Shown one piece after another: positions 1 through 23,023 of a stretch of 32,000 bases of DNA (the first letter of the stretch is position 1; the number at the start of each line of letters is the position of its first letter). The translations under genes and the position numbers were made by a program. The stretch covers positions 2,175,604 to 2,207,603 of the forward strand of contig NZ_JBHSTI010000008.1 of the NCBI RefSeq assembly GCF_042660085.1, read 5' to 3'. Source of the DNA: Longivirga aurantiaca (GTDB lineage Bacteria; Actinomycetota; Actinomycetes; S36-B12; CAIYMF01). The notes below the pieces were generated by a model, which was given only the letters and a program-made list of their open reading frames with translations, did no database searches and was not told where the DNA came from.

Positions 1-51
1 TTACAGCCGTCTCCAGCCTGGCACCGCCCGTTGGCGCGTGTCCTGCCGTAC

Positions 52-672
52 TCAGGAGCGGGTGACGGCAGCCTGGAGGTTCTTCCGGTGCCGGACGACG
101 ACGAGGATCGTGAGGAGCGCGGCGAAGACGACGTCGCTCGTCGGGTCATCGAACCACAGCGCCGCCGGCACGAGCATCAGGCAGCCGGCGACCGAGGCGA
201 GGCCGATGCGCCGCGTGATCGCCCACGCGATGCCGAACACCACGAGCACCGGGACCGCCCAGATCGGCTGCACGGCGAGGATCGCGCCGAACGACGTCGC
301 GACCCCCTTGCCGCCCTTGCCGCGCAGCAGCGGCGACGTCACGTGCCCGAGGACGGCGGCGAGCCCGGCGACGAGCGCCGGCACGTGCAGCCCGAACGCC
401 TCGAACCCAACGACCACGACGTACCCCTTGAGGATGTCGAGGACGCCGACGACGACACCGACCTTCCAGCCGAAGGCGCGGCCCGCGTTGGTGGCACCCG
501 GGTTCCCCGAGCCCACCGCGGAGAGGTCGGTGCCGCGCAGGCGGGCGATGCCCGTGGCCGGGTTCAGCATCCCGACGCAGTAGCCGATCACCGCGGCGAG
601 GAGCACGAGCAGCACCTGCACCATCGTGCTGCTCGACTCCCAGATGGCGGCGAGTCCGTCGTACGTCGGCAT
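52..672 (-). CDS. plsY: Glycerol-3-phosphate acyltransferase PlsY
   Basis: The C-terminal 190-206 aa of ORF 52..1797 read as a typical PlsY: multi-TM, with motifs GSGNPGATNAGRAFG and HVTSPLLRGKGGKGVATSFG. The start is either ATG 672, which overlaps the degV stop (TGATG), or ATG 624 (MVQVLL..., GGGAG upstream). The rest of the 581-aa ORF overlaps degV in another frame and is spurious. Confidence 0.85.
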   Translation of the reverse strand: MPTYDGLAAIWESSSTMVQVLLVLLAAVIGYCVGMLNPATGIARLRGTDLSAVGSGNPGATNAGRAFGWKVGVVVGVLDILKGYVVVVGFEAFGLHVPALVAGLAAVLGHVTSPLLRGKGGKGVATSFGAILAVQPIWAVPVLVVFGIAWAITRRIGLASVAGCLMLVPAALWFDDPTSDVVFAALLTILVVVRHRKNLQAAVTRS

Positions 673-4843: not shown

Positions 4844-6112
4844 CTACCCGCGGGCGTCCCGGGCGGCGTACCAGCCGCGAAGACCCGTGGCGTCCTGCCC
4901 GTTGCGCAGCAGCGCGGCCATGACCTGCATGGGCTCGTCGACGTGCCGGAAGAACCGCTGGTAGCCCTCGCACAGGTAGTGCAGGCCCGGCTCGCCGTCC
5001 GGCGTCGTGAGGAACCGGTCCTTCGGGCAGCCGCCGTTGCAGGCGAACCGCACGTCGCAGGAGCGGCAGTACGCCGGCAGCGTGTCGAGCTTGGCGCGGC
5101 CGAACGCCTTCTGCTGCGGCGAGTCGACCATCTGCAGAAGCGTCCTGCCCTCGGCGATGTTGCCGAGCTTGTGCGCGGGCTCGACGTAGTGGTCGCAGGA
5201 GTAGAGGTCGCCGTTGTGCTCGAGCGCGAGCGCCTCGCCGCAGACCTGCGCGTGCACGCAGGCGCCGGTCTGGTGCATGCCGAGCCAGTGCGCGAGCGCG
5301 GTGTCGAAGACGGGCACGAAGACGTCGCCGACGTCCTTGCGCGCCCACTCGTCGAAGACCTCGACGAGGAACTGGCCGTACTGCGCGGCGCCGACCGACC
5401 GGGTCGTGACGAGGTCGCCCTCCTGCTTGTACAGCGGCCGGTCGCGCGCCCGCGAGCCCCAGCCCGCCTCCGCCAGGGGCAGCAGCTCCGGCGTCACCCG
5501 CTCGACGATGGGGATGAGCTGGATGTACTGCGCGCCCAGCTCGTCGCGCAGGAAGCGGTAGACCTCGAGCCCGTGGTCGGCGTTCGCGGCGTTGATGGTC
5601 GTGAGCGCGTTCCACTCGACGCCGTGCTTCTGCAGGGTGCGTAGCCCCGCGATCACCCGGTCGTACGTCGGCTTCCCGCCCTTGTCGACGCGGTAGGCGT
5701 CGTGCATCTCGCGCGGTCCGTCGATCGACACCCCGACGAGGAACCCCTGCTCGGCGAAGAACGCGGCCATCTCGTCGTCGACGAGGGTGGCGTTGGTCTG
5801 CACCGTGTTGAGCACGTGCTGGCCCGGCACGGCGTACCGGCGCTCGAGCTCGACGACCCGACGGAAGAAGTCGGTGCCCATGAGCGTGGGCTCGCCGCCC
5901 TGGAACGCGACCACGACCTCGTCAGCACCCCGGTGCGCGGCGAGCAGCTGCGTGACGTAGGCCTCGAGCACCTCGTCGGGCATCCGGAACTCGCTTCCGG
6001 GGTACAGCGACTCCTTGGACAGGAAGAAGCAGTAGTCGCAGTCGAGGTTGCAGATCGCGCCCGTCGGCTTGCTCATCACGTGGAAGACACGCGGAGCCTG
6101 CGGACCGGTCAT
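4844..6112 (-). CDS. Anaerobic sulfatase-maturating enzyme (radical SAM/SPASM, AslB/AtsB/ChuR family)
   Basis: 422 aa. The radical-SAM motif is CNLDCDYC, followed by GGEPTL. Auxiliary-cluster cysteines are GACVHAQVC...SCDHY, YCRSCDVRFACNGGCPKDR and LHYLCEGY. A strong SD (GGGGAGGGGGG) precedes the ATG, which lies 40 nt downstream of the sulfatase stop. Confidence 0.9.
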   Translation of the reverse strand: MTGPQAPRVFHVMSKPTGAICNLDCDYCFFLSKESLYPGSEFRMPDEVLEAYVTQLLAAHRGADEVVVAFQGGEPTLMGTDFFRRVVELERRYAVPGQHVLNTVQTNATLVDDEMAAFFAEQGFLVGVSIDGPREMHDAYRVDKGGKPTYDRVIAGLRTLQKHGVEWNALTTINAANADHGLEVYRFLRDELGAQYIQLIPIVERVTPELLPLAEAGWGSRARDRPLYKQEGDLVTTRSVGAAQYGQFLVEVFDEWARKDVGDVFVPVFDTALAHWLGMHQTGACVHAQVCGEALALEHNGDLYSCDHYVEPAHKLGNIAEGRTLLQMVDSPQQKAFGRAKLDTLPAYCRSCDVRFACNGGCPKDRFLTTPDGEPGLHYLCEGYQRFFRHVDEPMQVMAALLRNGQDATGLRGWYAARDARG

Positions 6113-6152: not shown

Positions 6153-8504
6153 TCAGTCGAGCATGAACCACCCTCTCACCTCGGCCTCGTGGTCTCGGTA
6201 CGGCGTACCGCTGAGGTCGATGACCACGCGGTCGATCGTGCCGCCGGTGAACCGGAACGGTGCGACGTACGCGCGGGTCACCGGGGATCCGTCGTCGCGG
6301 CCGACGCAGTGCCCGTCCCCCGTCGCGTTGAAGAAGCCCGGCTGTGTCACGAGCGGTGACGTGCCGACCTCCTCGCCGTCGACGTACAGCCGCAGCGTCC
6401 CGGCCGCGCCGGGGCGCGGTGGGGCGCTCTTGCCCTCGGCACTGAACTCGGCGGTGAAGACGTGCGCCCCCGGCGTGATCGCGCGATCGGCCACCACCGT
6501 GGTCGTCTCTATGTCCAGCCAGTTGTAGGCGTAGGCCAGGCGGCCGCCCTGCACGTAGAGGCTGTGGCCCCCGGACACCCCGCCGTGGGCGTAGAGCACG
6601 CCCTCGGCGTCCGCGGATTCGAGCGTCACGCCGGCAGACACCGTGTACGAACGGCCGGGCAACCGGGGACCCGACAGCTCGGGCACCGGCGCCGTGTCCG
6701 GGTAGAACACGTAGCGGTCGCGCGGGGGCGCGCCCGACGGCCGCGGCGACAGCGTCTGCTCGAGCGCGTTGCGGTCGTCGAGGGGCAGGCCGTGGTACTG
6801 GTCGGCGAGCTCGAACCACCGTGCGACGAGCTCCTGAACCTTCTCCGGGTGCTCGGCCGCGACGTTGCGGGCCTGCGCCCGGTCCTCCGCGACGTGGTAG
6901 AGCTCCCACTCGTCTTCCTCGAACTTGCCCCAGCCCGACAGCGGCGGGTGCAGGGTGCACGCCAGCCAGCCGTCCTCGTAGACCGAGCGCTGGCCGAGCA
7001 TGGCGTAGAACTGCGTCGACTTCGCCGGCGCTGCCGGGTCGGTGAGCGCTGCGGCGAAGCTCTCGCCCTCGAGGGGCGACTGCGTGTACCCGGCCACCTC
7101 CGCCGGCGGCTCGAGCCCGATGAGGTCGTAGATCGTGGGGACGACGTCGACCGCGTGGACGTACTGCTGGCGCGGCACGGAGTCGGCGGGGATCCGCGCG
7201 GGCCAGGACACGATGCACATGTCGGCGATGCCGCCCTCGTACCCCGCCCACCGCTTCCAGTAGGGGAACGGGGTGTCGAAGGCCCAGGCCCATCCGGTGT
7301 TGTAGTGGTTGTGCGTCTCCGGGCCGCCGAGCTCGTCGATGTGCTGCAGCGACAGCTCGGTCGGCGTGGCGACGCCGTTGAAGAACTGCCACTCGTTGTA
7401 CGTCCCGTTGGGGCCGCCCTCGCCGCTGGCGCCGTTGTCGCTGACCACGACGACGATCGTGTTGTCGAGCTGCCCGCTCTCCTCGAGGAAGTCCAGCAGA
7501 CGGCCGACCTGGCTGTCGGTGTACTCGACGTAGCCCGCGAAGACCTCGGCCATGCGGACGAAGAGGCGCTTCTCGTCGTCGCTCAGGGTCGCCCACGGGC
7601 GGACGGTGTCGAGGAGCGGCCAGGGCTGCCCGTCGGGGCCGGTCCGCATCGGCTCGCCGTGCGGGTTGATGGGCGAGAGCTCGGTGCCCTCAGGAAGGAG
7701 CCCCAGCTCGACCTGGCGGGCGAGGATCCCCTCGCGGATGGCCTCGTAGCCCTCGTCGAAGACGCCCTTGTAGCGGTCCGCCCACTCCGGCCACACGTGG
7801 TGCGGGGCGTGCGCCGCGTCCAGCGAGAAGTACAGGAACCAGGGCTTGTCCGGGTCGATGGTGGTGGAGTCCTTGATGAACTCGATCGACCTGTCGGTGA
7901 GGTCCCAGGCGATGTGATAGCCCTCGGCCGGCGTCGACGGCGGCTCGACCGGGTGGTTGTCGTGCACGAGGTCGGGGAACCAGCTGCTCGCCTCACCGCC
8001 GAGGAAGCCGTAGAAGCGCTCGAACCCGCGGCCCAGGGGCCAGCGGCGCTTCCACGCGCTCATACCCGTCTCCTCGCCGGGGGTCAGGTGCCACTTGCCC
8101 ACGCAGTACGTGTTGTAGCCCTGCTCGACGAGCACCTCGGAGATGAGCCCGTTCTCGAACGGGATGCGTGTGGAGATGCCGGGGAATCCGGAGCTGAACT
8201 CGGCGATGGTCGCCATGCCGTTGCTCGTGGCGTTGCGGCCCGTGAGCAGGGAGGCTCGCGTCGGCGAGCACAGGGCGGTCGTGTGGAAGTTGGCGAGCTT
8301 CACGCCCCGCTCTGCGATGCGGGTCATCGCCGGGGTGCGCACGGGGCCGCCGAAGGACTCCATCGTCCCGTAGCCCACGTCGTCCCAGCAGATGACCAGG
8401 ACGTTGGGCGAACCCTTCGGCGCCTGCGGCGCCAGGAACGGGGCCCAGTCCGGCTCGGCGTCCCTGATGTCGAGAGCGACCTTCCCCTTCCACTCCACGG
8501 CCAT
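6153..8504 (-). CDS. Arylsulfatase, large AtsA-like type, Cys-type (formylglycine) active site
   Basis: Sulfatase signatures are NVLVICWDDVGYG, the formylglycine motif CSPTRASLLTGR, GKWHL and VVVSDNGASGEGG. A C-terminal extra domain is present. ATG 8504 (MAVEWKG) is preferred because GGAAGGGGA lies 6 nt upstream; the ORF-track start at 8555 adds an Arg-rich 17 aa. No signal peptide is visible. Confidence 0.9.
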   Translation of the reverse strand: MAVEWKGKVALDIRDAEPDWAPFLAPQAPKGSPNVLVICWDDVGYGTMESFGGPVRTPAMTRIAERGVKLANFHTTALCSPTRASLLTGRNATSNGMATIAEFSSGFPGISTRIPFENGLISEVLVEQGYNTYCVGKWHLTPGEETGMSAWKRRWPLGRGFERFYGFLGGEASSWFPDLVHDNHPVEPPSTPAEGYHIAWDLTDRSIEFIKDSTTIDPDKPWFLYFSLDAAHAPHHVWPEWADRYKGVFDEGYEAIREGILARQVELGLLPEGTELSPINPHGEPMRTGPDGQPWPLLDTVRPWATLSDDEKRLFVRMAEVFAGYVEYTDSQVGRLLDFLEESGQLDNTIVVVVSDNGASGEGGPNGTYNEWQFFNGVATPTELSLQHIDELGGPETHNHYNTGWAWAFDTPFPYWKRWAGYEGGIADMCIVSWPARIPADSVPRQQYVHAVDVVPTIYDLIGLEPPAEVAGYTQSPLEGESFAAALTDPAAPAKSTQFYAMLGQRSVYEDGWLACTLHPPLSGWGKFEEDEWELYHVAEDRAQARNVAAEHPEKVQELVARWFELADQYHGLPLDDRNALEQTLSPRPSGAPPRDRYVFYPDTAPVPELSGPRLPGRSYTVSAGVTLESADAEGVLYAHGGVSGGHSLYVQGGRLAYAYNWLDIETTTVVADRAITPGAHVFTAEFSAEGKSAPPRPGAAGTLRLYVDGEEVGTSPLVTQPGFFNATGDGHCVGRDDGSPVTRAYVAPFRFTGGTIDRVVIDLSGTPYRDHEAEVRGWFMLD

Positions 8505-14673: not shown

Positions 14674-16311
14674 TCAGTCGGCGGGAATCGCCTCGACATC
14701 GACTCCGGACATCGCCAGGACGGCTGCCCGCACGGTGGGGAAGCGGGACGTGTCCGGAAGCAGGTCGGTGAGGCCGAGCGCCTCCAGATGCTGATCGAAG
14801 GCGCGACGGGAACGTGCGATCACGAACTGGATCCCCTTGTCGCGCAGCTGCTCGATCATCTTCCGCAGCCCCTCGGCGCCCGAAGCGTCGAGGCTCACCA
14901 CGGCCTCCGCGTCGAGCACTACCGCACGCACCTCGTGCGGGGCGCCGTCCACCGCCTCTCGGACGCGGCCGGCGAAGTAGCGGCTGTTGGCGAAGAACAG
15001 CCGGTCGTCAAGACGGTAGACGACGACTCCGGGCACGACCCTCGCCTTCGGCCGTCGCTGGACGTCGACGAAGCGGCGCGCCACCGGGTCCCAGCCCAGC
15101 ACTGCGTCGCGGGGCTGTGCGCTCGTACGCACGACGTCGATGATGGACAGAAGGACGGCGAGGATCAGCGAAGGCAGCAGGCCGATCGTGATCATCCCCA
15201 GGACCAGGACTCCAGCGATCGCGAACTCGGGCCGTGAGCCCCGCCAGAGCGCTCTCCAGGCCTGGAGGTCGATGAGGCCGAGGGCGGCGAAGATGATGAC
15301 TGCTGCCAGCGTGGCCTTCGGCAGGAGGGCGAGCACGCCTGTCAGGAACAGCAGGACCACCGCGGCCACGGCCACCTGGACGAGCCCGACCACCTGCGTA
15401 CGTCCGCCCACCCGGACGTTGATCGCGGTACGGGATCCACTCGATCCGAGCGGGAAGGACTGCGACAGCCCGGCGGCGAGGTTGACGCCGGCGAGCGCCA
15501 TCAGCTCCTGGTTCGCGTCGACGGGACGGCCGCCGTCGAGGGCGAAGCTGCGTGCAGCGAGGATGGCGTCGGCGAAGCCCACCAGAGCGACCGCGATCGC
15601 GATCGGGACGAGCTGGAGCACCTGCACTGCTCCGACGCCGGGCCAGTCCAAGGCCGGCAGCCCGGCAGGGATGTCCCCCACCAGCGTGACGCCCAGGCCG
15701 TCGAAGTCCCAAGCCCACGATAGGGCGATCGCGATGACGGTCACCGCGAGCAGTGCCGGGAAGCGGGGAAGCCAGCGTGCTCCGACCATGAGCGCCGCCA
15801 ACGACAGGCCCCCGACCAGGAGCTCGAGCTGGTCCACCTGCCCCACGAACCCGGTCAGGAACGACGCGTACTCCTGCAGCGGGGTGTCGCCCTCGACCGC
15901 GACCCCCGTGAACTCGTCGAGCTGGCCCGCGAGGAGGGTGAGCGCAAGACCCGTGAGGAAGCCCAGCAGGACCGACGTCGAGAAGTAGTCGGCGACCCAG
16001 CCGAGGCGGAACACGCGTGCGAGGACGAAGGCCGCCGCCACCAGGAGCGCCATCATCGCGGCCAGCACCGGGTAGTCGGCCGGGTCCGAGCTGATCGCGA
16101 CCAGCGCCGGCCCCACCATGAGCGCCGTGGTCGCGGTCGGTCCCGTCATCAGGTTGCGTGAGGAACCGAGCAGCGCGTACACAGCCAACGGCAGCAGCAG
16201 TCCGTAGAGCCCCGAGACGACCGGCAGCCCCGCCGTCTGCGCATAGGCCATCGATTGGGGGATCGCGATCGCGGCGAGAGCCACGCCGGCGACGAGATCC
16301 GCGCGCAACAC
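14674..16311 (-). CDS. SulP-family anion (sulfate) permease with C-terminal STAS domain
   Basis: 545 aa from GTG 16311. The SulP N-terminal motif is DLVAGVALAAIAIPQSMAYAQTAGLP...YALLGSSR. The STAS domain reads VVVYRLDDRLFFANSRYF...VVLDAEAVVSLDASGAEGLRK. See the findings for the unusual start. Confidence 0.9.
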   Translation of the reverse strand: MLRADLVAGVALAAIAIPQSMAYAQTAGLPVVSGLYGLLLPLAVYALLGSSRNLMTGPTATTALMVGPALVAISSDPADYPVLAAMMALLVAAAFVLARVFRLGWVADYFSTSVLLGFLTGLALTLLAGQLDEFTGVAVEGDTPLQEYASFLTGFVGQVDQLELLVGGLSLAALMVGARWLPRFPALLAVTVIAIALSWAWDFDGLGVTLVGDIPAGLPALDWPGVGAVQVLQLVPIAIAVALVGFADAILAARSFALDGGRPVDANQELMALAGVNLAAGLSQSFPLGSSGSRTAINVRVGGRTQVVGLVQVAVAAVVLLFLTGVLALLPKATLAAVIIFAALGLIDLQAWRALWRGSRPEFAIAGVLVLGMITIGLLPSLILAVLLSIIDVVRTSAQPRDAVLGWDPVARRFVDVQRRPKARVVPGVVVYRLDDRLFFANSRYFAGRVREAVDGAPHEVRAVVLDAEAVVSLDASGAEGLRKMIEQLRDKGIQFVIARSRRAFDQHLEALGLTDLLPDTSRFPTVRAAVLAMSGVDVEAIPAD

Positions 16312-16543
16312 GCGCGGGGAGTATGAGCGCAGGTCCCCGACGAGGGGGGCAAGCGATTCCAGGACCGGGGGTCGGCTCGAGGCGGATGCACCTCGGTCGG
16401 GTCACCCGCCTGCTGCTGGTCCGCCGGCTCAGGGCGTCGCGACTCGTCCATCGCGCACATTGCATCGCACATGCCCCGACCGATGCAGCAGATGCGCCCG
16501 AGAGATTCCGCATTCGCGGTGCATCCCGGGTCGCCACAAGGCC
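16312..16543. promoter_or_regulatory. Divergent intergenic region between SulP and the anSME-remnant/sulfatase operon
   Basis: About 230 nt with no credible ORF, so it must carry the promoters for both divergent units. It contains nested inverted repeats GATGCA-GATGCG...CGCATT-TGCATC (16482-16525) and direct repeats ATCGC(GC)ACAT (16450-16472). No -35/-10 pair could be assigned with confidence. Confidence 0.3.
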
Positions 16544-17158
16544 ATGCTGTCGCTCGTGATGGGGGTGGACGCGTGGACCGCGGTGCCGCGGCCGTTCCAT
16601 GCCATGTCTGCACCCACGGGCGCCATCTGCAACCTCGGCTGCGAGTACTGCTTCTACCTGGCCGATGAGTCCCTCTACCCCGGCGGCTCCTCCCGGATGC
16701 CCGAGGATGTCCTCGAGGGCTACGTGGTCGGGCTCCTCGAGGCGCAGGCAGGTCTGGCGGAGGTGGTCATCGCCTTCGAGGGCGGTGGGCCCACCCGGGT
16801 CGGGAGCCTGGCCGACGCCCGGACACTGCTTCAGATGGTCGACTCCCCGAAGCAGACGGCGTTCGGCACCGCGACACGCGACAGCCTGCCTCAGTGCTTC
16901 CGGCGGTGCGATGTCGGCTTCGCCTGCGGCGGCTGCTGTCCGAAGGACCGTCTGATCGACGCTCCTGGTGGCGAGGCAGGGCTCAACTGGTTCTGCTCGG
17001 GCCACCGGTCGTTCTTCCGGCACATCGACGCACCGATGCGGACGATGGCCGATGTCGTCCCGACCGGCAGCGGCGCCGCCGATGTCATGGGCTGGTATGC
17101 GCAGCACCAGCCTGATCCGCACTCGGCTGCGCCGGCACCCAGTGGAGGAGCACCATGA
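16544..17158 (+). pseudogene. Internally deleted paralog of the anaerobic sulfatase-maturating enzyme (relic or minimal form)
   Basis: It aligns to the intact anSME (4844-6112) only at the N-terminal ~75 aa (AICNLGCEYC, AFEGGGPT) and the C-terminal ~100 aa (RTLLQMVDSP, CDVGFACGGCCPKDR, FFRHIDAPM). About 235 central codons are missing in frame. SD signals are weak at all candidate starts (16544, 16559, 16604). Its TGA overlaps the sulfatase ATG. Confidence 0.6.
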
Positions 17159-20058
17159 GCAAGACGCAGATGCTGATCGTCGCGGGCTACTCAGACGCCG
17201 ACGTCGCAGAAGCCGAGTTCCGGACGCTGGCCGACATGGTGGCGGCGAAGAAGCTGAGCAGCCAGGGGATCATCCTCGTCGGCAAGGGGCCGGACGGCGA
17301 GCCGCGGCTCATGGACACGGGCAACCACCTCGGCCGTCGCGGCGCTGCGTGGGGCGGTGGCGCCGGGGTCCTGGTGGGCCTGTTCGCGCCGCCCATGCTC
17401 GGTGCCGTCGCCGTGGGCGCCGCCGCCGGCGCCGTGGTGGGTCACTTCGCCGGCAACAAGCTGACGGCAGTGGTCCAGGAACAGATCGGAGCGGCCCTGA
17501 AGGCAGGCACCGCCGTCATCATCGGCGTTTTCCCGGCCGAGGACCGTCTTGTCGTCGAGCGCGCCCTGCCGGGAGCACCGCTCAAGTCCGTCGTGGAGAG
17601 CGACGAGGGCGGCATCGACGAGCTGAAGGCCAAGCTGGCCGAGGCGATGGGCAAGTTCCAGCCCGACCGGACGGTGCTGCCCGTCCCGGACAAGCCATTC
17701 AGCGGGGTGGCCGGGCGCACCATCGACGAGTCCGTGGGCGACTGGTCCATCGTCGCGGCCACGAAGGCTCCCGAGGACGCCCCCAACGTGCTCGTGGTGC
17801 TCATCGACGACGCCGGCTTCGGAGGGCCGGACACGTTCGGGGGCGGGATCCGGACGCCGAACCTCAGCCGCGTGCAGCAGCAGGGACTCACCTACAACCG
17901 GTTCCACGTCACGGCCGTCTGCTCGCCCACCCGCGCCGCGCTGCTGACCGGTCGCAACCACCACCGCGTGGGCATGGGGGGTATCGCAGAGTTCCCTGGC
18001 CCCTTCCCTGGCTACACGGGAATCCGACCCAGGGCGACGACCGCCCTGCCGCGGATCCTCAAGGAGAACGGGTACATCACCGGTGGCTTCGGCAAGTGGC
18101 ACATGACTCCCGGCCATGACATGGGCGCGGCCGGGTCGTTCGACCACTGGCCGACCGGGTGGGGCTTCGACCACTGGTGGGGCTTCCTGACCGGTGCAGC
18201 CGGCCAGTACGACCCCATCATCACCCTGGACAACTCGACCCTGGGCGTGCCCGAGGGCGACGACGGCAAGCTCTACTACTTCCCGGACGACATCACCGAC
18301 AAGACCGTCGAGTGGCTGCACGCGGTGCGCGCGCAGGATGCCGACAAGCCCTGGTTCGTCTACTACTCGACCGGAGCGACGCACGCTCCGCACCACGTCG
18401 CCAAGGAGTGGGCCGACAAGTACAAGGGCCAGTTCGATGACGGATGGGACGTCTACCGCGAGCGCACGCTCGAGCGCCAGAAGGCACTCGGCATCGTCCC
18501 GCCCGACACCGAGCTCACCGAGCGGCCCGACATCTTCCCCGCATGGGACAGCCTCTCCGAAGCGGAGCGGAAGCTCTACGCGCGGCAGATGGAGGTCTTC
18601 GCCGGGTTCTCCGAGAACGCCGACTGGAACGTCGGACGGCTGCTCGATGCAGTGGAGGAGATGGGCGAGCTCGACAACACCCTCGTGATCTACATCTGGG
18701 GCGACAACGGCGCGTCCATGGAGGGCACCGTCACCGGTTCGTTCAACGAGACGACGTTCTTCAACGGGCTGGTCCTCGACGCCGAGGAGCAGTTCGCGCT
18801 GATCGACAAGTACGGCGGCATCGCCGAGCTCGGCGGCTTCCACACCGCACCCCACTTCGCGGCTGCGTGGGCGCACGCGAACAACACGCCGTTCCAGTGG
18901 GGGAAGCAGATGGCCAGCCACCTCGGAGGCACTCGCGACCCCATGGTGGTGTCGTGGCCGAAGCGGATCCCCGCAGGCGGAAGCCTGCGCACGCAGTTCA
19001 CCCACTGCATCGACGTCGTCCCCACGATCCTCGAGGTCGTCGGGCTGCCCGTGCCGACGAGCGTGGACGGCGTGGCGCAGGAGCCGATGGACGGAACCAG
19101 CTTCGCCTACACCTTCGACAGCCCTGACGCCGAGGAGCAGCACACCACCCAGTACTTCGAGATGTACGGGAGCCGTGCGATCTACAAGGACGGCTGGTGG
19201 GCCTGCACCAAGCTCGACAAGCTGCCGTGGGACTTCGGGCCGGCGACGCTCGCTCGGTTCGGTCCGGGCAGCGGATGGGACCCGAACGCGGACGTGTGGG
19301 AGCTGTACCACCTCGCCGACGACTTCTCGCAGGCCCGGAACGTCGCGGCCGAGCTCCCTGACAAGGTCGCCGAGCTGGTCGAGCTCTTCTGGTCGGAGGC
19401 CGAACGCAACCGCGTGCTGCCGCTGCTCGGAGGGTTCGCTGCCTTCTTCGGCATCCTCCCGCCCATGCCCACGCAGACCCGGTTCACCTTCGCCGGTGAC
19501 GTCCAGAACATCCAGACGACCATGATCCCGAGGATCTACGGACGCTCGTACGCCATCGAGGCCGACGTGCACGTCCCGGAAGGAGGCGCGCAGGGTGTGC
19601 TCGTGGCGTTCGCCGACTTCATCGGCGGCTTCGCGCTGTGGGTCGACGAGAACGGCCTGCTCAACCACACCTACCAGTACTTGGGCGTCGACACCTACCG
19701 CCAGACGTCGAAGGAGCCGATCCCGACCGGCGATGTCACGTTGAAGATGCTGTTCCAGGCCGACGAGACCAGACCGGGCACCGGGGGCCGCGTGTCCTTG
19801 TGGGCGGACGATCGACAGATCGGCGAGGGCGATCTGCCGCGCACGATCTCGCTGATCTTCAGCACCTACGCCGGCATGGACATCAGCCGGGACAACGGCG
19901 GTGTCGTCGACCTCGACTACGAGGACCGGGCGCCGTATGCGTTCACGGGGACGGTGCGCAACGTCGTCTTCGACCTCGCGCCGCGCGCTCTGGACGATGA
20001 GCTGGCCCTGCACGAAGCCGCATCACGGGCCGCACTCGCTCACGGCGCCGCGGGATAG
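17155..20058 (+). CDS. Arylsulfatase (Cys-type, AtsA-like) with N-terminal DUF1269-like glycine-zipper membrane module
   Basis: 967 aa with GGAGGAG 5 nt before the ATG. Residues 1-165 read MLIVAGYSD...GAAWGGGAGVLVGLFAPPMLGAVAVGAAAGAVVGHFAG...AVIIGVF, the pattern of the DUF1269 family. From about residue 175 it is a full sulfatase with NVLVVLIDDAGFG, CSPTRAALLTGR, GKWHM and IWGDNGASMEG, plus the C-terminal domain shared with the 6153-8504 paralog. Confidence 0.9.
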   Translation: MSKTQMLIVAGYSDADVAEAEFRTLADMVAAKKLSSQGIILVGKGPDGEPRLMDTGNHLGRRGAAWGGGAGVLVGLFAPPMLGAVAVGAAAGAVVGHFAGNKLTAVVQEQIGAALKAGTAVIIGVFPAEDRLVVERALPGAPLKSVVESDEGGIDELKAKLAEAMGKFQPDRTVLPVPDKPFSGVAGRTIDESVGDWSIVAATKAPEDAPNVLVVLIDDAGFGGPDTFGGGIRTPNLSRVQQQGLTYNRFHVTAVCSPTRAALLTGRNHHRVGMGGIAEFPGPFPGYTGIRPRATTALPRILKENGYITGGFGKWHMTPGHDMGAAGSFDHWPTGWGFDHWWGFLTGAAGQYDPIITLDNSTLGVPEGDDGKLYYFPDDITDKTVEWLHAVRAQDADKPWFVYYSTGATHAPHHVAKEWADKYKGQFDDGWDVYRERTLERQKALGIVPPDTELTERPDIFPAWDSLSEAERKLYARQMEVFAGFSENADWNVGRLLDAVEEMGELDNTLVIYIWGDNGASMEGTVTGSFNETTFFNGLVLDAEEQFALIDKYGGIAELGGFHTAPHFAAAWAHANNTPFQWGKQMASHLGGTRDPMVVSWPKRIPAGGSLRTQFTHCIDVVPTILEVVGLPVPTSVDGVAQEPMDGTSFAYTFDSPDAEEQHTTQYFEMYGSRAIYKDGWWACTKLDKLPWDFGPATLARFGPGSGWDPNADVWELYHLADDFSQARNVAAELPDKVAELVELFWSEAERNRVLPLLGGFAAFFGILPPMPTQTRFTFAGDVQNIQTTMIPRIYGRSYAIEADVHVPEGGAQGVLVAFADFIGGFALWVDENGLLNHTYQYLGVDTYRQTSKEPIPTGDVTLKMLFQADETRPGTGGRVSLWADDRQIGEGDLPRTISLIFSTYAGMDISRDNGGVVDLDYEDRAPYAFTGTVRNVVFDLAPRALDDELALHEAASRAALAHGAAG

Positions 20059-20280: not shown

Positions 20281-20754
20281 ATGAGGACTCGATTCGCAGG
20301 GATCGTCGTCGCTGCGTCGCTGCTGGCGCTGACAGGCTGCTCGCAGCAGTCGGAGGCCGATGCGGTTGCGTCGTTGGACGCGCGGCTGGCCACGGTGGAG
20401 GACCGGCTCGCGGGCGTCGAGGCGGTCGTGGGCGAGGCGCTCATAGCCGAGCCGGCGAAGCAGCTCCAGGCGGAGCTCGACCAGCTCGTGCTCGATGTCG
20501 CCGGTGCGGAGGTGCCGGCGGACGTCCAGGCCGACCTGGACGCGGCGAAGGACGCCGTGGCCGACGCCCAGGCGGCGGCCGAGGCGGCCATCGCCGCCGA
20601 GGAGGCGGAGGACGCCGCCACGGCGGAGGCCGTGGCGGCTGCTCAGAAGGCGATCGCCGATGCGCGCGCCAAGCTGGAGGCGGTCAAGGAGGCCTTGGCC
20701 GGGTTCCTCGCCACGGCACGGCCGACACCGAGCGCCTCGCCCTCTCCCAGCTGA
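20281..20754 (+). CDS. Lipoprotein, Ala/Glu-rich predicted coiled coil
   Basis: 157 aa. The signal peptide ends in the lipobox LLALTG-C. The remainder is helical low-complexity sequence (AEAAIAAEEAEDAATAEAVAAAQKAIADARAKLEAVKEA) with a Pro/Ser tail. Confidence 0.7.
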   Translation: MRTRFAGIVVAASLLALTGCSQQSEADAVASLDARLATVEDRLAGVEAVVGEALIAEPAKQLQAELDQLVLDVAGAEVPADVQADLDAAKDAVADAQAAAEAAIAAEEAEDAATAEAVAAAQKAIADARAKLEAVKEALAGFLATARPTPSASPSPS

Positions 20755-20814: not shown

Positions 20815-21009
20815 ATGAGCAGCACCCCTGCGCCCGAGGACCTGCAGTGGGCCGCCAGCGCGGTCTTCGTCGCCGGCCTCAGCGCCGTCGGCAACTTCAT
20901 GTTCCTGCCGTACCAGCCGCCGTGGGCGATCCTCATCATGGCCCTCGACGTCCTCATCATCTGGGCGCTCGCCACTCGTCGCGAGGCGATCCACCTGCTC
21001 GACAGCTGA
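20815..21009 (+). CDS. Small two-TM membrane protein (hypothetical)
   Basis: 64 aa with a strong SD (GGGAGGA, 7-nt spacer). It has two hydrophobic segments, WAASAVFVAGLSAVGNFMFL and WAILIMALDVLIIWALA. Confidence 0.55.
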   Translation: MSSTPAPEDLQWAASAVFVAGLSAVGNFMFLPYQPPWAILIMALDVLIIWALATRREAIHLLDS

Positions 21010-21056
21010 CCGCGGGCCCGACGCCGCACACAACCCTCGCCGGAAGGACCACGCGC

Positions 21057-21356
21057 ATGTCGCTCCTCGGCTGGGGCAAGGCCAGCTGGATCATCAGCCT
21101 GCTGTTCATCCCGTTCCTCACCCCGCTGATCAACGTCGTCACGCAGGGCCCGACGACGGCCCAGCGCGACGCGCAGCGGTACACCGCGATGCGCGCCCAG
21201 CAGGACGACTACGGCCGCAACCTCGCGGCCCGCGCCGATCCCACCGCGCAGATCAAGCTGGCGCACGACCCGCTGCCGTCCGGCACCATCGCCCAGGCCG
21301 AGTTCGACGCCATCACGTCCAAGGCGCTCGCCTGGCCGGAGGGATTCCGCCCATGA
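21057..21356 (+). CDS. Small membrane protein with PLDc_N-like TM segment and SHOCT-like C-terminus
   Basis: 99 aa from an internal ATG of ORF 20847..21356, with GGAAGGA 8 nt upstream. WIISLLFIPFLTPLINVV resembles the PLD-nuclease N-terminal (PLDc_N) motif. The C-terminus SGTIAQAEFDAITSKALA resembles a diverged SHOCT. Its TGA overlaps the SulP ATG (ATGA). Confidence 0.55.
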   Translation: MSLLGWGKASWIISLLFIPFLTPLINVVTQGPTTAQRDAQRYTAMRAQQDDYGRNLAARADPTAQIKLAHDPLPSGTIAQAEFDAITSKALAWPEGFRP

Positions 21357-23023
21357 CGAAGGTGCGCTGGGGGCGCGAGACCACGGCCGGCCTCGCGGGG
21401 GCCATCGGGTCCGTGCCCGACGGGATGGCCACGGCCGTCCTCGCGGGGGCGAACCCGATGGCAGGCCTGTACGCATCCTTCGCCGGGCCGACGGCAGGCG
21501 GACTGCTCCAGTCGACCACCGTCATGGTGGTGGCGACCACCTCAGCTGCGGCGGTGACAACGGCCGAGGTGATGACCGCCGGTCCCGCCGACCCGCTGAG
21601 GACGCTGGCGACCCTGACCGTCCTGGCCGGCGTCTTCATGCTGCTGGCAACCCGGCTGGGGTTCGCCAAGCTGATGCGGTTCGTCTCCGCATCGGTCATG
21701 GGCGGGTTCATGTTCGGGGTGGGGCTCATCCTGATCCTGGGCCAGCTCGCCGACGCCACCGGCGTGACCACCAGCGGAGGCTCCACGCTGGAGAAGGCGC
21801 TGAACACGCTGCGCCAATGGCAATCCTTCGACCTGGCCTCGATGCTCACCGCCGGCGCCGCCATCGCCCTCAGCATCGCCTTCGGCCGCGGAAAGCTGGT
21901 GGCGCTCGCCCCACTGATCGCCATCGCGATCCCCACCCTCGTCCTGGCGGCGACCGATGGCGAGGTGGCCACGGTGGAGTCGACGTCCGGAGCCATCGCG
22001 GTCGGGCTTCCCCCGCTGGTCCTGCCCGACCCGGGCCTGATCTCGCCCACACTGGTCGCGGCGGCGGCGGCCCTCACGATCGTCGTGCTGGTCCAGGCCG
22101 CCGGCGTCGGCGTGGCCTACCCCAACACCGACGGCACGGCCAACGACGTGACCCGCGACTTCTACGCCCAGGGCGGGTCGAACATCGCTTCAGGCCTCGT
22201 CGGCGGCGTACCGGTCGGAGGCAGCGTCGGCCAGACCGAGTTCAACGTCATGGCTGGGGGGCGGACGCGGTGGGCGGTGATCATCAGCGGCCTCTGGATG
22301 CTGGTCTTCGTCGTCGCCCTCGGGCCGGTGCTGTCGGCTGTGCCCATCCCAGCCCTGGCAGGGCTGCTGATCCTGGCCGGCTTCGGCTCCCTGAAGCCGC
22401 GGACGCTGGCCCGCTCCTGGCGCACCGGCAAGGCCTCCGCAGCTGCTGCGCTGATCACCATGGGCGCCACCTTGCTGGTCCCGATCCACATCGCCGTCCT
22501 GGTCGGCGTGGTCCTGTCGCTGCTCCTGTCGGCGATCACCGGGGCGTCGGCGACCCATATCGTCGCCCTGGAACCCGCGGGACCGGGCCACTGGCGTCGC
22601 GCCGCGGTCCCCACCGAACTGGCACCTGGGCAGGTCACCGCCCTCGACATCGAGGGGGCGGGGGGCTTCGTCTCCGTTCCCGCCCTGTTCGCGCAGTTGC
22701 CCGCCGTTCCCGGCGACGGCGGCCGGGAAGGTGAACGGCTCTTCGCCGTCGTCCTGCGGCTGCGCGGCCACCTCCGGACCAACCTAACCTTCACCAAGGC
22801 TCTCGAGGCCTACGGCGAGCAGCTCGCCGCGTCCGGCGGCCACCTGAGCGTATGCGGCCTGCAACCCGGCACCATCGCCCAGCTGCGAGCCGCAGGACTG
22901 CCGGAGACCATCGCGCTCATCGCCCAGGGCGAGGAGACGGACGGGTCGCTGGCAGTCGCCTACGCCCGGGCCGGCGACTGGCTGACGGAGTCGGGGGCGC
23001 AGCCTCCCTCAGACGCGGTCTGA
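21353..23023 (+). CDS. SulP-family anion permease with STAS-like C-terminal domain (second copy, divergent)
   Basis: 556 aa. The multi-TM core has a SulP-like N-terminus (TTAGLAGAIGSVPDGMATAVLAGANPMAGLYASF) and glycine-rich helices. The C-terminal soluble domain (VVLRLRGHLRTNLTFTKALEAYGEQLAASGGHLSVCGL) is STAS-like. Confidence 0.85.
   Translation: MTKVRWGRETTAGLAGAIGSVPDGMATAVLAGANPMAGLYASFAGPTAGGLLQSTTVMVVATTSAAAVTTAEVMTAGPADPLRTLATLTVLAGVFMLLATRLGFAKLMRFVSASVMGGFMFGVGLILILGQLADATGVTTSGGSTLEKALNTLRQWQSFDLASMLTAGAAIALSIAFGRGKLVALAPLIAIAIPTLVLAATDGEVATVESTSGAIAVGLPPLVLPDPGLISPTLVAAAAALTIVVLVQAAGVGVAYPNTDGTANDVTRDFYAQGGSNIASGLVGGVPVGGSVGQTEFNVMAGGRTRWAVIISGLWMLVFVVALGPVLSAVPIPALAGLLILAGFGSLKPRTLARSWRTGKASAAAALITMGATLLVPIHIAVLVGVVLSLLLSAITGASATHIVALEPAGPGHWRRAAVPTELAPGQVTALDIEGAGGFVSVPALFAQLPAVPGDGGREGERLFAVVLRLRGHLRTNLTFTKALEAYGEQLAASGGHLSVCGLQPGTIAQLRAAGLPETIALIAQGEETDGSLAVAYARAGDWLTESGAQPPSDAV

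Follow-up and report, generated by a model that had tools for sequence, protein, structure and literature searches.

A DUF1269 glycine-zipper module joined to a Cys-type arylsulfatase in fused and split form: a candidate membrane-proximal sulfatase

In Longivirga aurantiaca, a gene for an AtsB-like arylsulfatase carries a complete DUF1269 module ahead of the sulfatase. The DUF1269-sulfatase link exists both fused and split, since the closest stand-alone DUF1269 genes lie directly downstream of a sister-clade sulfatase; the split form is newly seen here. The fused architecture is neither rare nor new: it is widespread, occurring in hundreds of soil bacteria, and it is already annotated automatically. 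Regarding what the module might do, we lean, with caution, towards a cytoplasmic Cys-type sulfatase that the zipper hairpin of DUF1269 keeps, probably in oligomeric form, at the inner side of the membrane. Features of the window, by which we mean the whole stretch of 32,000 nt that was analysed, are collected in Table 1.

Table 1. Features of the window, with positions, strand and the basis of each assignment
Feature	Position	Strand	Basis or remark
DUF1269-sulfatase fusion gene (AtsB-like arylsulfatase), 967 aa	17155..20058	+	ORF listing, continuous third-position GC
Shine-Dalgarno GGAGGA	17144..17149	+	five bases 5' of the ATG at 17155, read from sequence
Module ferredoxin-like domain, first half, aa 1-56	17155..17322	+	AF2, alignment to stand-alone DUF1269
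Glycine-zipper helical hairpin, aa 60-100	17332..17454	+	conserved length, glycines, prolines
Module ferredoxin-like domain, second half, aa 101-168	17455..17658	+	AF2, Pfam match to residue 140
Conserved linker, aa 169-208 (FQPDRTVLPVPDKPFSGVAGRTIDESVGDW...)	17659..17778	+	invariant residues in 33 fusions
Formylglycine-dependent sulfatase catalytic domain, aa 209-746	17779..19392	+	PF00884, PAS alignment
Cys-type signature C256-S-P-T-R260	17920..17934	+	aligned with PAS motif, read from sequence
C-terminal beta-sandwich, aa ~775-945	19477..19989	+	homologous to paralog ConA-like (Laminin_G_3) domain
AtsA/AtsD-like paralogous sulfatase, 39% identical to fusion core	6153..8504/8555	-	without DUF1269 module
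Intact anSME (radical-SAM/SPASM)	4844..6112	-	PF04055 + PF13186; immediately downstream of paralog
anSME remnant with internal deletion	16460..17158	+	directly upstream of fusion; stop overlaps fusion start (ATGA)
SulP permease with STAS domain	14674..16311	-	PF00916 E=6e-83, PF01740; divergent from remnant-fusion operon
Second SulP permease	21353..23023	+	PF00916 E=1e-49; downstream of fusion

The 967-aa fusion that a sequence-only reading of this DNA had noticed is confirmed as one real gene and not an artefact, because the coding signal is unbroken at the junction, the Shine-Dalgarno site is strong and the same contiguous arrangement is present in 79 of the 80 species genomes retrieved. The ORF starts with ATG, and GC at its three codon positions is 0.66, 0.47 and 0.92. 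From 17101 to 20058 one and the same frame has the high third-position GC (0.84-0.94), and the frame does not change between module and sulfatase. A long antisense ORF (17191..20013, 940 aa) was rejected as a gene, since it lacks the codon-position GC pattern of the plus-strand ORF.

A frameshift or assembly error joining two separate genes, which would have undone that reading, has a negligible probability. We found no support for it. Some gene calls do cover only a short DUF1269 protein or part of a DUF1269+sulfatase protein, but most of these are on short or ENA-sourced contigs and look like fusions that were cut off. Against such an error stand the continuous third-position GC, the conservation of the linker, the uninterrupted 962-970 aa architecture in nearly all full-length relatives among 120 listed protein clusters, and the inclusion of complete isolate chromosomes (Pedococcus, Rhodococcus opacus) among the genomes with an uninterrupted fusion. 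For practical purposes the artefact explanation is refuted.

The retrieved genomes belong to Actinomycetota and Chloroflexota, and the one in which module and sulfatase are not contiguous is a contig fragment. The survey of domain architecture that had been called for gave the same picture: all 120 listed clusters are orthologues of ~967 aa, nearly all with PF06897 and PF00884, and their architecture does not differ from that of the window fusion. Orthologues with 70-93% identity over the full length are found in Intrasporangiaceae/Dermatophilaceae, Nocardioides, Arthrobacter, Cellulomonas, Rhodococcus and Chloroflexota, and the JGI product name of some is 'arylsulfatase A-like enzyme/uncharacterized membrane protein'. 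A literature search found nothing on a DUF1269-sulfatase fusion; the DUF1269 papers were not about sulfatases, a search for sulfatases with a glycine zipper gave irrelevant items only, and one for Rv3299c as a sulfatase gave none. A tblastn search of plasmids returned unfused sulfatases only. One protein, P0136, was discarded as a stand-alone DUF1269 query, as it may be a truncated fusion; many of its relatives proved to be either incomplete DUF1269+sulfatase calls or short DUF1269 proteins from contigs that are short or ENA-sourced.

The proposal that the N-terminal part corresponds to a complete DUF1269-type protein is borne out by a significant HMM match. In the full protein PF06897 matches residues 64-140 with 34.4 bits (E=3e-8), the Pfam gathering threshold being 26.9 bits, and residues 1-180 alone reach 37.5 bits (E=3e-9). 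Ten stand-alone DUF1269 proteins of 171-193 aa are collinear end to end with fusion residues ~4-170, and stand-alone members terminate near fusion residue 168. Residues 1-168 are thus the complete module. Its conservation, at 47-87% identity, is below that of the sulfatase core (74-91%).

An AF2 model of the module alone, made from 86 sequences, resolves the soluble domain and leaves the zipper unresolved (pLDDT 30-50). The soluble part has the order beta-alpha-beta-beta / alpha-beta-alpha-beta-alpha at pLDDT 70-85. Its first half consists of a strand (5-12), a helix (15-30) and two strands (38-44 and 50-54), with pLDDT 71-85 over residues 1-50; its second half, of helix 101-114, strand 120-127, helix 128-137, strand 143-149 and helix 154-168. 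In the model the module is one ferredoxin-like domain, its two halves separated by the zipper hairpin. A preprint arrives independently at a ferredoxin fold with a glycine-zipper helical hairpin for DUF1269. The glycine zipper that had been noticed from sequence thus stands, but the two alpha/beta units on either side of it would not be separate units; by AF2 and the preprint they are halves of one domain.

In all 86 relatives the zipper (aa 63-100) has a length of exactly 38 residues, and its glycines and prolines are 79-100% conserved among them. The hairpin has glycines at 60, 63, 67, 69, 71 and 75, a P79-P80 turn and further glycines at 88, 92 and 96, so that GxxxG ladders run along both arms. 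There is no charged residue in the zipper of the fusion protein and almost none across the family; the PP turn is uncharged and K/R cluster in the hairpin flanks. The Kyte-Doolittle maximum of the zipper is 1.97, and on the Wimley-White octanol scale the zipper falls outside the top ten 19-residue windows. A hairpin that spans the bilayer is not assured, because each arm has only ~16 apolar residues and is Gly/Ala-rich and moderately hydrophobic.

If the hydrophobic stretch were instead a single-pass signal anchor (N in, C out), the sulfatase would be displayed on the outside of the membrane once an anSME had matured it in the cytoplasm. Sulfatases matured by anSMEs are commonly exported, as in the case of Klebsiella AtsA/AtsB and the Bacteroides sulfatases, and 38 residues are long enough for one crossing. 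For the same reason the cytoplasmic radical-SAM maturase encoded in the window is no sign of a cytoplasmic sulfatase, and that part of the sequence-only argument has to be dropped. We nevertheless regard a signal anchor as highly improbable. The PP turn, which is invariant, and the symmetry of the GxxxG ladders speak for a hairpin, and the zipper flanks cannot occupy opposite sides of the membrane because both fold into one beta-sheet domain, as judged from the model and from the stand-alone proteins. Moreover, the sister-clade and paralogous sulfatases have neither a signal peptide nor a fused module.

Behind the module comes a linker in which D171, R172, L175, P176, D179, F182, G184, D196 and W197 are invariant in 33 fusions, and whose second half is the usual N-terminus of unfused AtsA/AtsD-like sulfatases. 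The ordinary N-terminus of the sulfatase starts at about residue 175-182, in line with the suggested start at about residue 175: homology to the window paralog begins at residue 182, and homology to unfused plasmid-borne arylsulfatases begins at residues 158-177 (tblastn). PF00884 matches residues 210-630 above its gathering threshold (222.4 bits, E=1e-65). All five residues of the CSPTR signature are invariant in the 33 fusions, and C256 is predicted to be converted to formylglycine. Equally invariant are D218, D219, K314, H316, H410, D517, N518 and K584, which match catalytic residues of PAS, the Pseudomonas aeruginosa arylsulfatase; their PAS equivalents are D13, D14, K113, H115, H211, D317, N318 and K375. 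On this alignment the fusion can be classed as a Cys-type formylglycine arylsulfatase with the full set of PAS catalytic residues.

By BLASTP the fusion and the paralog are 39% identical over fusion residues 182-958. The C-terminal region of the paralog matches PF13385 Laminin_G_3; that of the fusion has no direct Pfam match, and AF2 gives it all-beta strands with pLDDT up to 94. These features place the fusion among the long actinobacterial AtsA/AtsD/AtsB-like arylsulfatases, which have a catalytic and a C-terminal ConA-like domain. The full-length AF2 model (33 orthologues) is poor, with a mean pLDDT of 52, and docking of the module on the sulfatase is not visible in it.

The paralog, encoded on the minus strand, lacks the module, as had been noted, and its N-terminus (MAVEWKGK...) does not resemble a signal peptide. 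By inspection neither sulfatase has an evident signal peptide, again as noted before. The ORF directly upstream of the fusion is a deletion remnant of a second anSME, because it retains only two segments of the intact one, residues 7-80 (64% identity) and residues 315-416 (54% identity), and there is no Pfam match, the radical-SAM core and SPASM domain being incomplete. The deletion is internal and in frame and covers ~235 codons. In four other loci (L013, L018, L024 and L025) an intact anSME occupies this position.

The scheme that we favour can be put as follows. An AtsB-type formylglycine arylsulfatase has as its N-terminus a complete DUF1269 module, which would be a CutA/PII/NikR-like domain with a rigid 38-residue helical hairpin between the domain halves. 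Most likely the hairpin enters or crosses the cytoplasmic membrane, or else packs against its own copies, and would keep the enzyme, probably oligomeric, at the inner membrane face. Module and sulfatase would both be on the cytoplasmic side, since the chain has to leave one folded domain for the hairpin and come back to it, and no signal peptide is present. The anSME encoded in the window would turn C256 into formylglycine, and the mature enzyme would hydrolyse an imported or membrane-associated sulfate ester. The architecture, its conservation, the catalytic residues and the fused and split link of DUF1269 to this sulfatase clade are observed; membrane insertion, cytoplasmic topology, oligomerisation and the substrate of the fusion, and with them the tethering of the sulfatase by the module, we infer.

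In the window the fusion lies between two SulP genes, and it had been suggested that tethering next to these permeases couples ester hydrolysis to transport of sulfate or of the substrate. In the strict form, the module would dock the sulfatase on the permease and the coupling would be physical. Among the 79 fusion loci, 24 do have a SulP gene within 6 kb; the arrangements vary and two phyla are represented. This number is far above expectation, since there are few SulP genes per genome. The remaining 55 loci have no SulP nearby, however, and the gene lists of the four split sulfatase-DUF1269 loci whose flanks are complete include no SulP gene. Common involvement in the scavenging of sulfur accounts for the co-location without physical coupling. 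SulP genes are enriched near the fusion, but the link is not an obligatory one and any coupling is facultative at most; docking on SulP we consider improbable.

The split form is found with the closest stand-alone DUF1269 family, whose members are 171-172 aa long and 41-46% identical to the module. In all five contexts examined the DUF1269 gene is 11-15 nt downstream of a sulfatase gene or overlaps it by 4 nt. Compared over the whole gene, the split sulfatase of loci L081 and L088 is 57% identical to the fusion core and 37% to the paralog. More distant DUF1269 members occur in unrelated contexts, e.g. fpg/nei-lhr. In two loci (L089 and L090) a second, stand-alone DUF1269 gene directly follows the fusion, the order being pseudouridine synthase, fusion, DUF1269, Fpg/Nei, Lhr. 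A DUF6325 gene adjoins the fusion in 21 of the 79 loci, usually just downstream; none was found in the window.

These neighbours bear on a different role, in which the module would serve regulation or oligomerisation by binding a ligand or a subunit, and the zipper would pack helices between subunits of a soluble complex controlling the activity or assembly of the sulfatase. Both the zipper-less homologue DUF6325 beside the fusion and the second DUF1269 after it suggest hetero-oligomers, and the hydrophobicity of the zipper is only moderate. The best Foldseek matches of the module are CutA1, NikR and PII (weak, with E >= 0.1 and target-normalised TM-scores of ~0.5), and matches of the same kind are given in the preprint; CutA1, PII/GlnK and NikR are trimeric or tetrameric ligand-binding proteins, and the zipper would sit at the position of the PII T-loop. 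On the other hand, a charge-free 38-residue stretch with K/R on both sides is rather what one expects of a membrane-inserted segment, JGI names label DUF1269 proteins as membrane proteins, and no ligand-binding residues were identified. A regulatory role is possible, but we think it rather doubtful. Regulation or oligomerisation and membrane anchoring are compatible with each other.

A more speculative suggestion, by analogy with GlnK plugging AmtB, is that DUF1269 is a dedicated partner of the AtsB clade: a PII/CutA-like oligomer in which a membrane-inserting zipper hairpin replaces the T-loop. The bundle might attach the sulfatase to the membrane or a transporter, or be a conduit itself, and it could gate access of the ester or release of sulfate. 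We consider this fairly improbable.

Whatever the mechanism is, DUF1269 is widespread and has no established function, the long actinobacterial arylsulfatases are not known to act on any particular substrate, and the fused and split links give a testable hypothesis for both families, that of a membrane-proximal or oligomeric cytoplasmic sulfatase. Taking the fusion as a functional clue for DUF1269 was legitimate, and the clue is strengthened by the split sulfatase-DUF1269 operons. The value lies in the comparative pattern; the window fusion is an ordinary member of a database-annotated architecture.

Among known proteins, M. tuberculosis AtsB (Rv3299c) probably belongs to the fusion orthologues, in view of its length of 970 aa and of the H37Rv atsB neighbourhood, which the gene order of L089 and L090 resembles. 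M. tuberculosis sulfatases have no known substrates according to the literature. Stand-alone DUF1269 proteins (PF06897 / COG4803 'uncharacterized membrane protein') have the same 38-residue hairpin and the same flanking secondary structure, but are separate polypeptides, and the split gene order, sulfatase then DUF1269, runs opposite to the order of domains in the fused protein. DUF6325 (PF19850) aligns with the soluble domain of the module over 122 columns (hhalign probability 89.5%, E=1.9e-6) and has an acidic loop in place of the glycine zipper. CutA1, PII (GlnB/GlnK) and the C-terminal domain of NikR share the beta-alpha-beta-beta-alpha-beta topology modelled for the soluble part, in matches that are not significant; they have no sequence similarity to the module, and none has a hydrophobic glycine-zipper insertion. 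The closest solved relative of the fusion is PAS/AtsA of Pseudomonas aeruginosa (1HDH, 4CXK), a cytoplasmic enzyme, residues 4-517 of which align with fusion residues 209-746 (E ~1e-62). PAS, of 536 aa, has neither the DUF1269 module nor the C-terminal ConA-like beta-sandwich, but it shares with the fusion the Cys-type CxPxR motif and all metal-binding and catalytic residues, and both are without a signal peptide.

The fusion of a DUF1269 module (residues ~1-170) with an arylsulfatase core is carried by one continuous gene. Third-position GC stays at 0.84-0.94 in a single frame over the entire ORF, including the junction of module and sulfatase, and the three codon positions have GC contents of 0.66/0.47/0.92 in a window of ~72% GC. 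A Shine-Dalgarno sequence, GGAGGA, lies 5 bases 5' of the ATG. The possibility that a frameshift or an assembly artefact created the fusion is refuted. An antisense ORF of 940 aa opposite the gene failed the codon-position criterion and was rejected as the usual high-GC shadow. The sequence-only reading had described the sequence correctly apart from the strand of the paralog, the second sulfatase of the window, which is minus. A DUF1269 HMM match, which that reading had set as a check, is present: Pfam matches PF06897 to residues 64-140 (E=3e-8, 34.4 bits, cut-off 26.9 bits; 37.5 bits with residues 1-180 alone) and PF00884 (Sulfatase) to residues 210-630 (E=1e-65). The paralog is without the module; its homology to the fusion runs from residue 182 through 958 (39% identity), and alignments of plasmid-borne unfused arylsulfatases begin at fusion residues 158-177. 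Searching 1.84 billion representative proteins with phmmer gave 621 relatives of residues 1-180 (E up to 1e-3), among them complete stand-alone proteins of 171-193 aa that align end to end with residues ~4-170.

Coordinates of the genes, loci and module elements discussed in the text (L numbers are loci retrieved from other species)
Feature	Locus	Position	Strand	Remark
Intact anSME	window	4844-6112	-	
Module-less paralog	window	6153-8504	-	
anSME remnant	window	16460-17158	+	directly upstream of fusion; in-frame internal deletion
Fusion ORF	window	17155-20058	+	2904 nt, 967 aa (ORF listing)
Small gene	window	20281-20754	+	lipoprotein-type signal (…LLALTGCSQQ), Ala/Glu-rich body
Small membrane-protein gene	window	20847-21356	+	recurs near fusions in L021, L028, L032, L069
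Similar anSME remnant	L027	9433-9965		
DUF6325 gene, ~150 aa	L014	12961-13419		adjoins fusion
DUF6325 gene, ~150 aa	L018	12977-13441		adjoins fusion
DUF6325 gene, ~150 aa	L015, L016, L022, others			adjoins fusion
Split sulfatase + DUF1269	L081	3578-6516		
Split sulfatase + DUF1269	L088	2656-5516		
Split sulfatase + DUF1269	L082, L086, L087			
Fusion followed by distant DUF1269	L089/L090	1799-5552		
Module, pre-zipper half (AF2)	fusion protein	strand 5-12, helix 15-30, strands 38-44 and 50-54		
Module, post-zipper half (AF2)	fusion protein	helix 101-114, strand 120-127, helix 128-137, strand 143-149, helix 154-168		

At the level of architecture the fusion is not a surprise. All of the 120 relatives listed are orthologues of ~967 aa with 74-93% identity, nearly all with PF06897 and PF00884 precomputed; their names include 'arylsulfatase' and, at JGI, 'arylsulfatase A-like enzyme/uncharacterized membrane protein'. 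With one genome scanned for each GTDB species, 521 related stretches emerged; the best 80 among them are from Chloroflexota and Actinomycetota (Nostocoides, Terrabacter, Pedococcus, Nocardioides, Arthrobacter, Cellulomonas, Rhodococcus, Thermoleophilia and Acidimicrobiales). Module and core are contiguous in 79 of these 80 loci, the remaining one being a 2.3-kb contig fragment. Across them, identity is lower in the module (47-87%) than in the core (74-91%); the linker between the two, unlike the module, is strongly conserved. A literature search for this architecture found no paper on it. The protein is a further member of a widespread, automatically annotated and experimentally unstudied architecture. 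The Chloroflexota orthologues (Chloroflexia, Anaerolineae and Caldilineaceae, within L035-L078) are 72-75% identical to the window protein, and those of Rhodococcus (L075/L077), which belongs to the same phylum as the window protein, 71%. Such similarity suggests that the gene either moved horizontally from one phylum to the other or is under unusually strong constraint.

The most telling of the comparative results is that the association of the two domains also exists in a split form. The true stand-alone DUF1269 family nearest to the module (171-172 aa, 41-46% identity to it) is encoded directly downstream of a sulfatase gene in five of the five contexts examined, with a gap of 11-15 nt or an overlap of 4 nt; the gene order, sulfatase then DUF1269, inverts the order that the domains have in the fusion. 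The split-form sulfatases (~780-800 aa) come from the sister clade, and those of L081 and L088, compared over the whole gene, have 57% identity to the fusion core versus 37% to the module-less paralog. By adjacency and identity pattern, the DUF1269-sulfatase link exists both as a fusion and as a split pair and is specific to a single sulfatase clade. Several stand-alone DUF1269 proteins of 171-183 aa (records P0409, P0478, P0479, P0486, P0495, P0496, P0498 and P0505) are called 'sulfatase' or 'arylsulfatase' by NCBI and JGI, misleading names that were probably carried over from the N-terminal module of fusions. Another record, P0230 (1726 aa, on an NCBI contig of 923 kb), has 16 separate matches to module residues 3-75, the first beta-alpha-beta-beta half, and no Pfam match; it may be a large protein made of half-domain repeats.

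The sulfatase part looks catalytically competent by its predicted active site. Its closest solved structure, Pseudomonas arylsulfatase (PAS; 1HDH/4CXK), aligns with residues 209-746 (E ~1e-62). In this alignment the PAS motif is matched by the Cys-type signature, C256-S-P-T-R260, and PAS active-site residues by D218, D219, K314, H316, H410, D517, N518 and K584; the signature and all eight residues are invariant in 33 orthologues. The C-terminal ~200 residues form an all-beta domain homologous to the Laminin_G_3/ConA-like C-terminus of the paralog. C256 would be matured by the intact anSME of the window, which presumably compensates for the anSME remnant, whose stop overlaps the fusion start (ATGA). 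The remnant retains residues 7-80 and 315-416 of its intact paralog, ~235 residues between them being missing. The remnant in L027 has the same position and the same C-terminal resumption point and is additionally frameshifted; an intact anSME occupies this position in L013, L018, L024 and L025.

Where does the enzyme reside? The argument from a cytoplasmic maturase to a cytoplasmic sulfatase, put forward in the sequence-only reading, fails, since some of the enzymes that anSMEs mature are exported later. An AF2 model of residues 1-180, built with 86 relatives, has pLDDT 70-85 in the soluble parts, on either side of a glycine-zipper hairpin. Its top Foldseek matches in the PDB, CutA1, NikR and PII/GlnK (E 0.1-0.3, target-normalised TM-scores ~0.5), are not significant alone; they are in line with a preprint in which DUF1269 is described as having a ferredoxin fold, similar to CutA1 and NikR, and a glycine-zipper motif predicted as a helical hairpin. 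Hence the two alpha/beta units noticed earlier would be the two halves of a single domain. The zipper is exactly 38 residues long in all 86 sequences, with conserved glycines (G60/63/67/69/71/75 and G88/92/96) and an invariant or nearly invariant P79-P80 turn. The turn is essentially charge-free, and K/R residues are concentrated on both sides of the zipper, whose hydropathy is moderate (Kyte-Doolittle maximum 1.97), with only ~16 apolar residues per arm. This charge-free, glycine-laddered hairpin with its K/R flanks would most likely insert into the membrane or self-associate. Because its flanks must rejoin in one beta-sheet domain, and no N-terminal signal peptide was evident on inspection, module and sulfatase would both lie on the cytoplasmic side. 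The same split-domain argument, and the hairpin form of the zipper, disfavour a single-pass signal anchor with the sulfatase outside the cell. The hairpin would then keep the enzyme at the inner surface of the membrane, where it might be oligomeric, because CutA and PII are trimers.

ORFs flanking the fusion by up to 6 kb were clustered for 79 loci. A SulP permease occurs in 24 of these loci, an anSME in 23, DUF6325 in 21 (usually just downstream on the same strand), a LuxR/MalT-like regulator (assigned from a representative sequence without a Pfam scan) in 19, DUF2252 in 17, a Na+/H+ exchanger in 13 and a second sulfatase in 10. The proposed coupling to SulP transport is possible given this enrichment, but it would be facultative: most fusion loci are without SulP, and none is listed in the four split loci whose flanks are complete. 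In the window, two small genes whose products have no Pfam match separate the fusion from the SulP gene downstream of it. DUF6325 (PF19850), which was not found in the window, is homologous to the soluble domain of DUF1269 (hhalign probability 89.5%, E=1.9e-6) but has no zipper; the homology joins two families of uncharacterised function. The presence of DUF6325 and DUF1269 genes beside fusions, like the PII/ACT-like fold of the module, speaks for a regulatory or oligomerisation role that involves no membrane insertion; this is plausible, and compatible with the membrane-held cytoplasmic enzyme that we prefer.

The suggestion that the fusion offers a functional clue for DUF1269 is real and fair, and the split operons make it stronger. 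More distant stand-alone DUF1269 genes (177-183 aa) lie between fpg/nei and lhr, which encodes the Lhr helicase, in Mycolicibacterium (L083-L085) and in L091. In L089/L090 such a gene comes immediately after a 967-aa fusion, in the order pseudouridine synthase, fusion, DUF1269, nei, lhr. We take this neighbourhood to resemble Rv3296-Rv3300c of M. tuberculosis, with lhr, nei, lpqC and atsB (Rv3299c, 970 aa).
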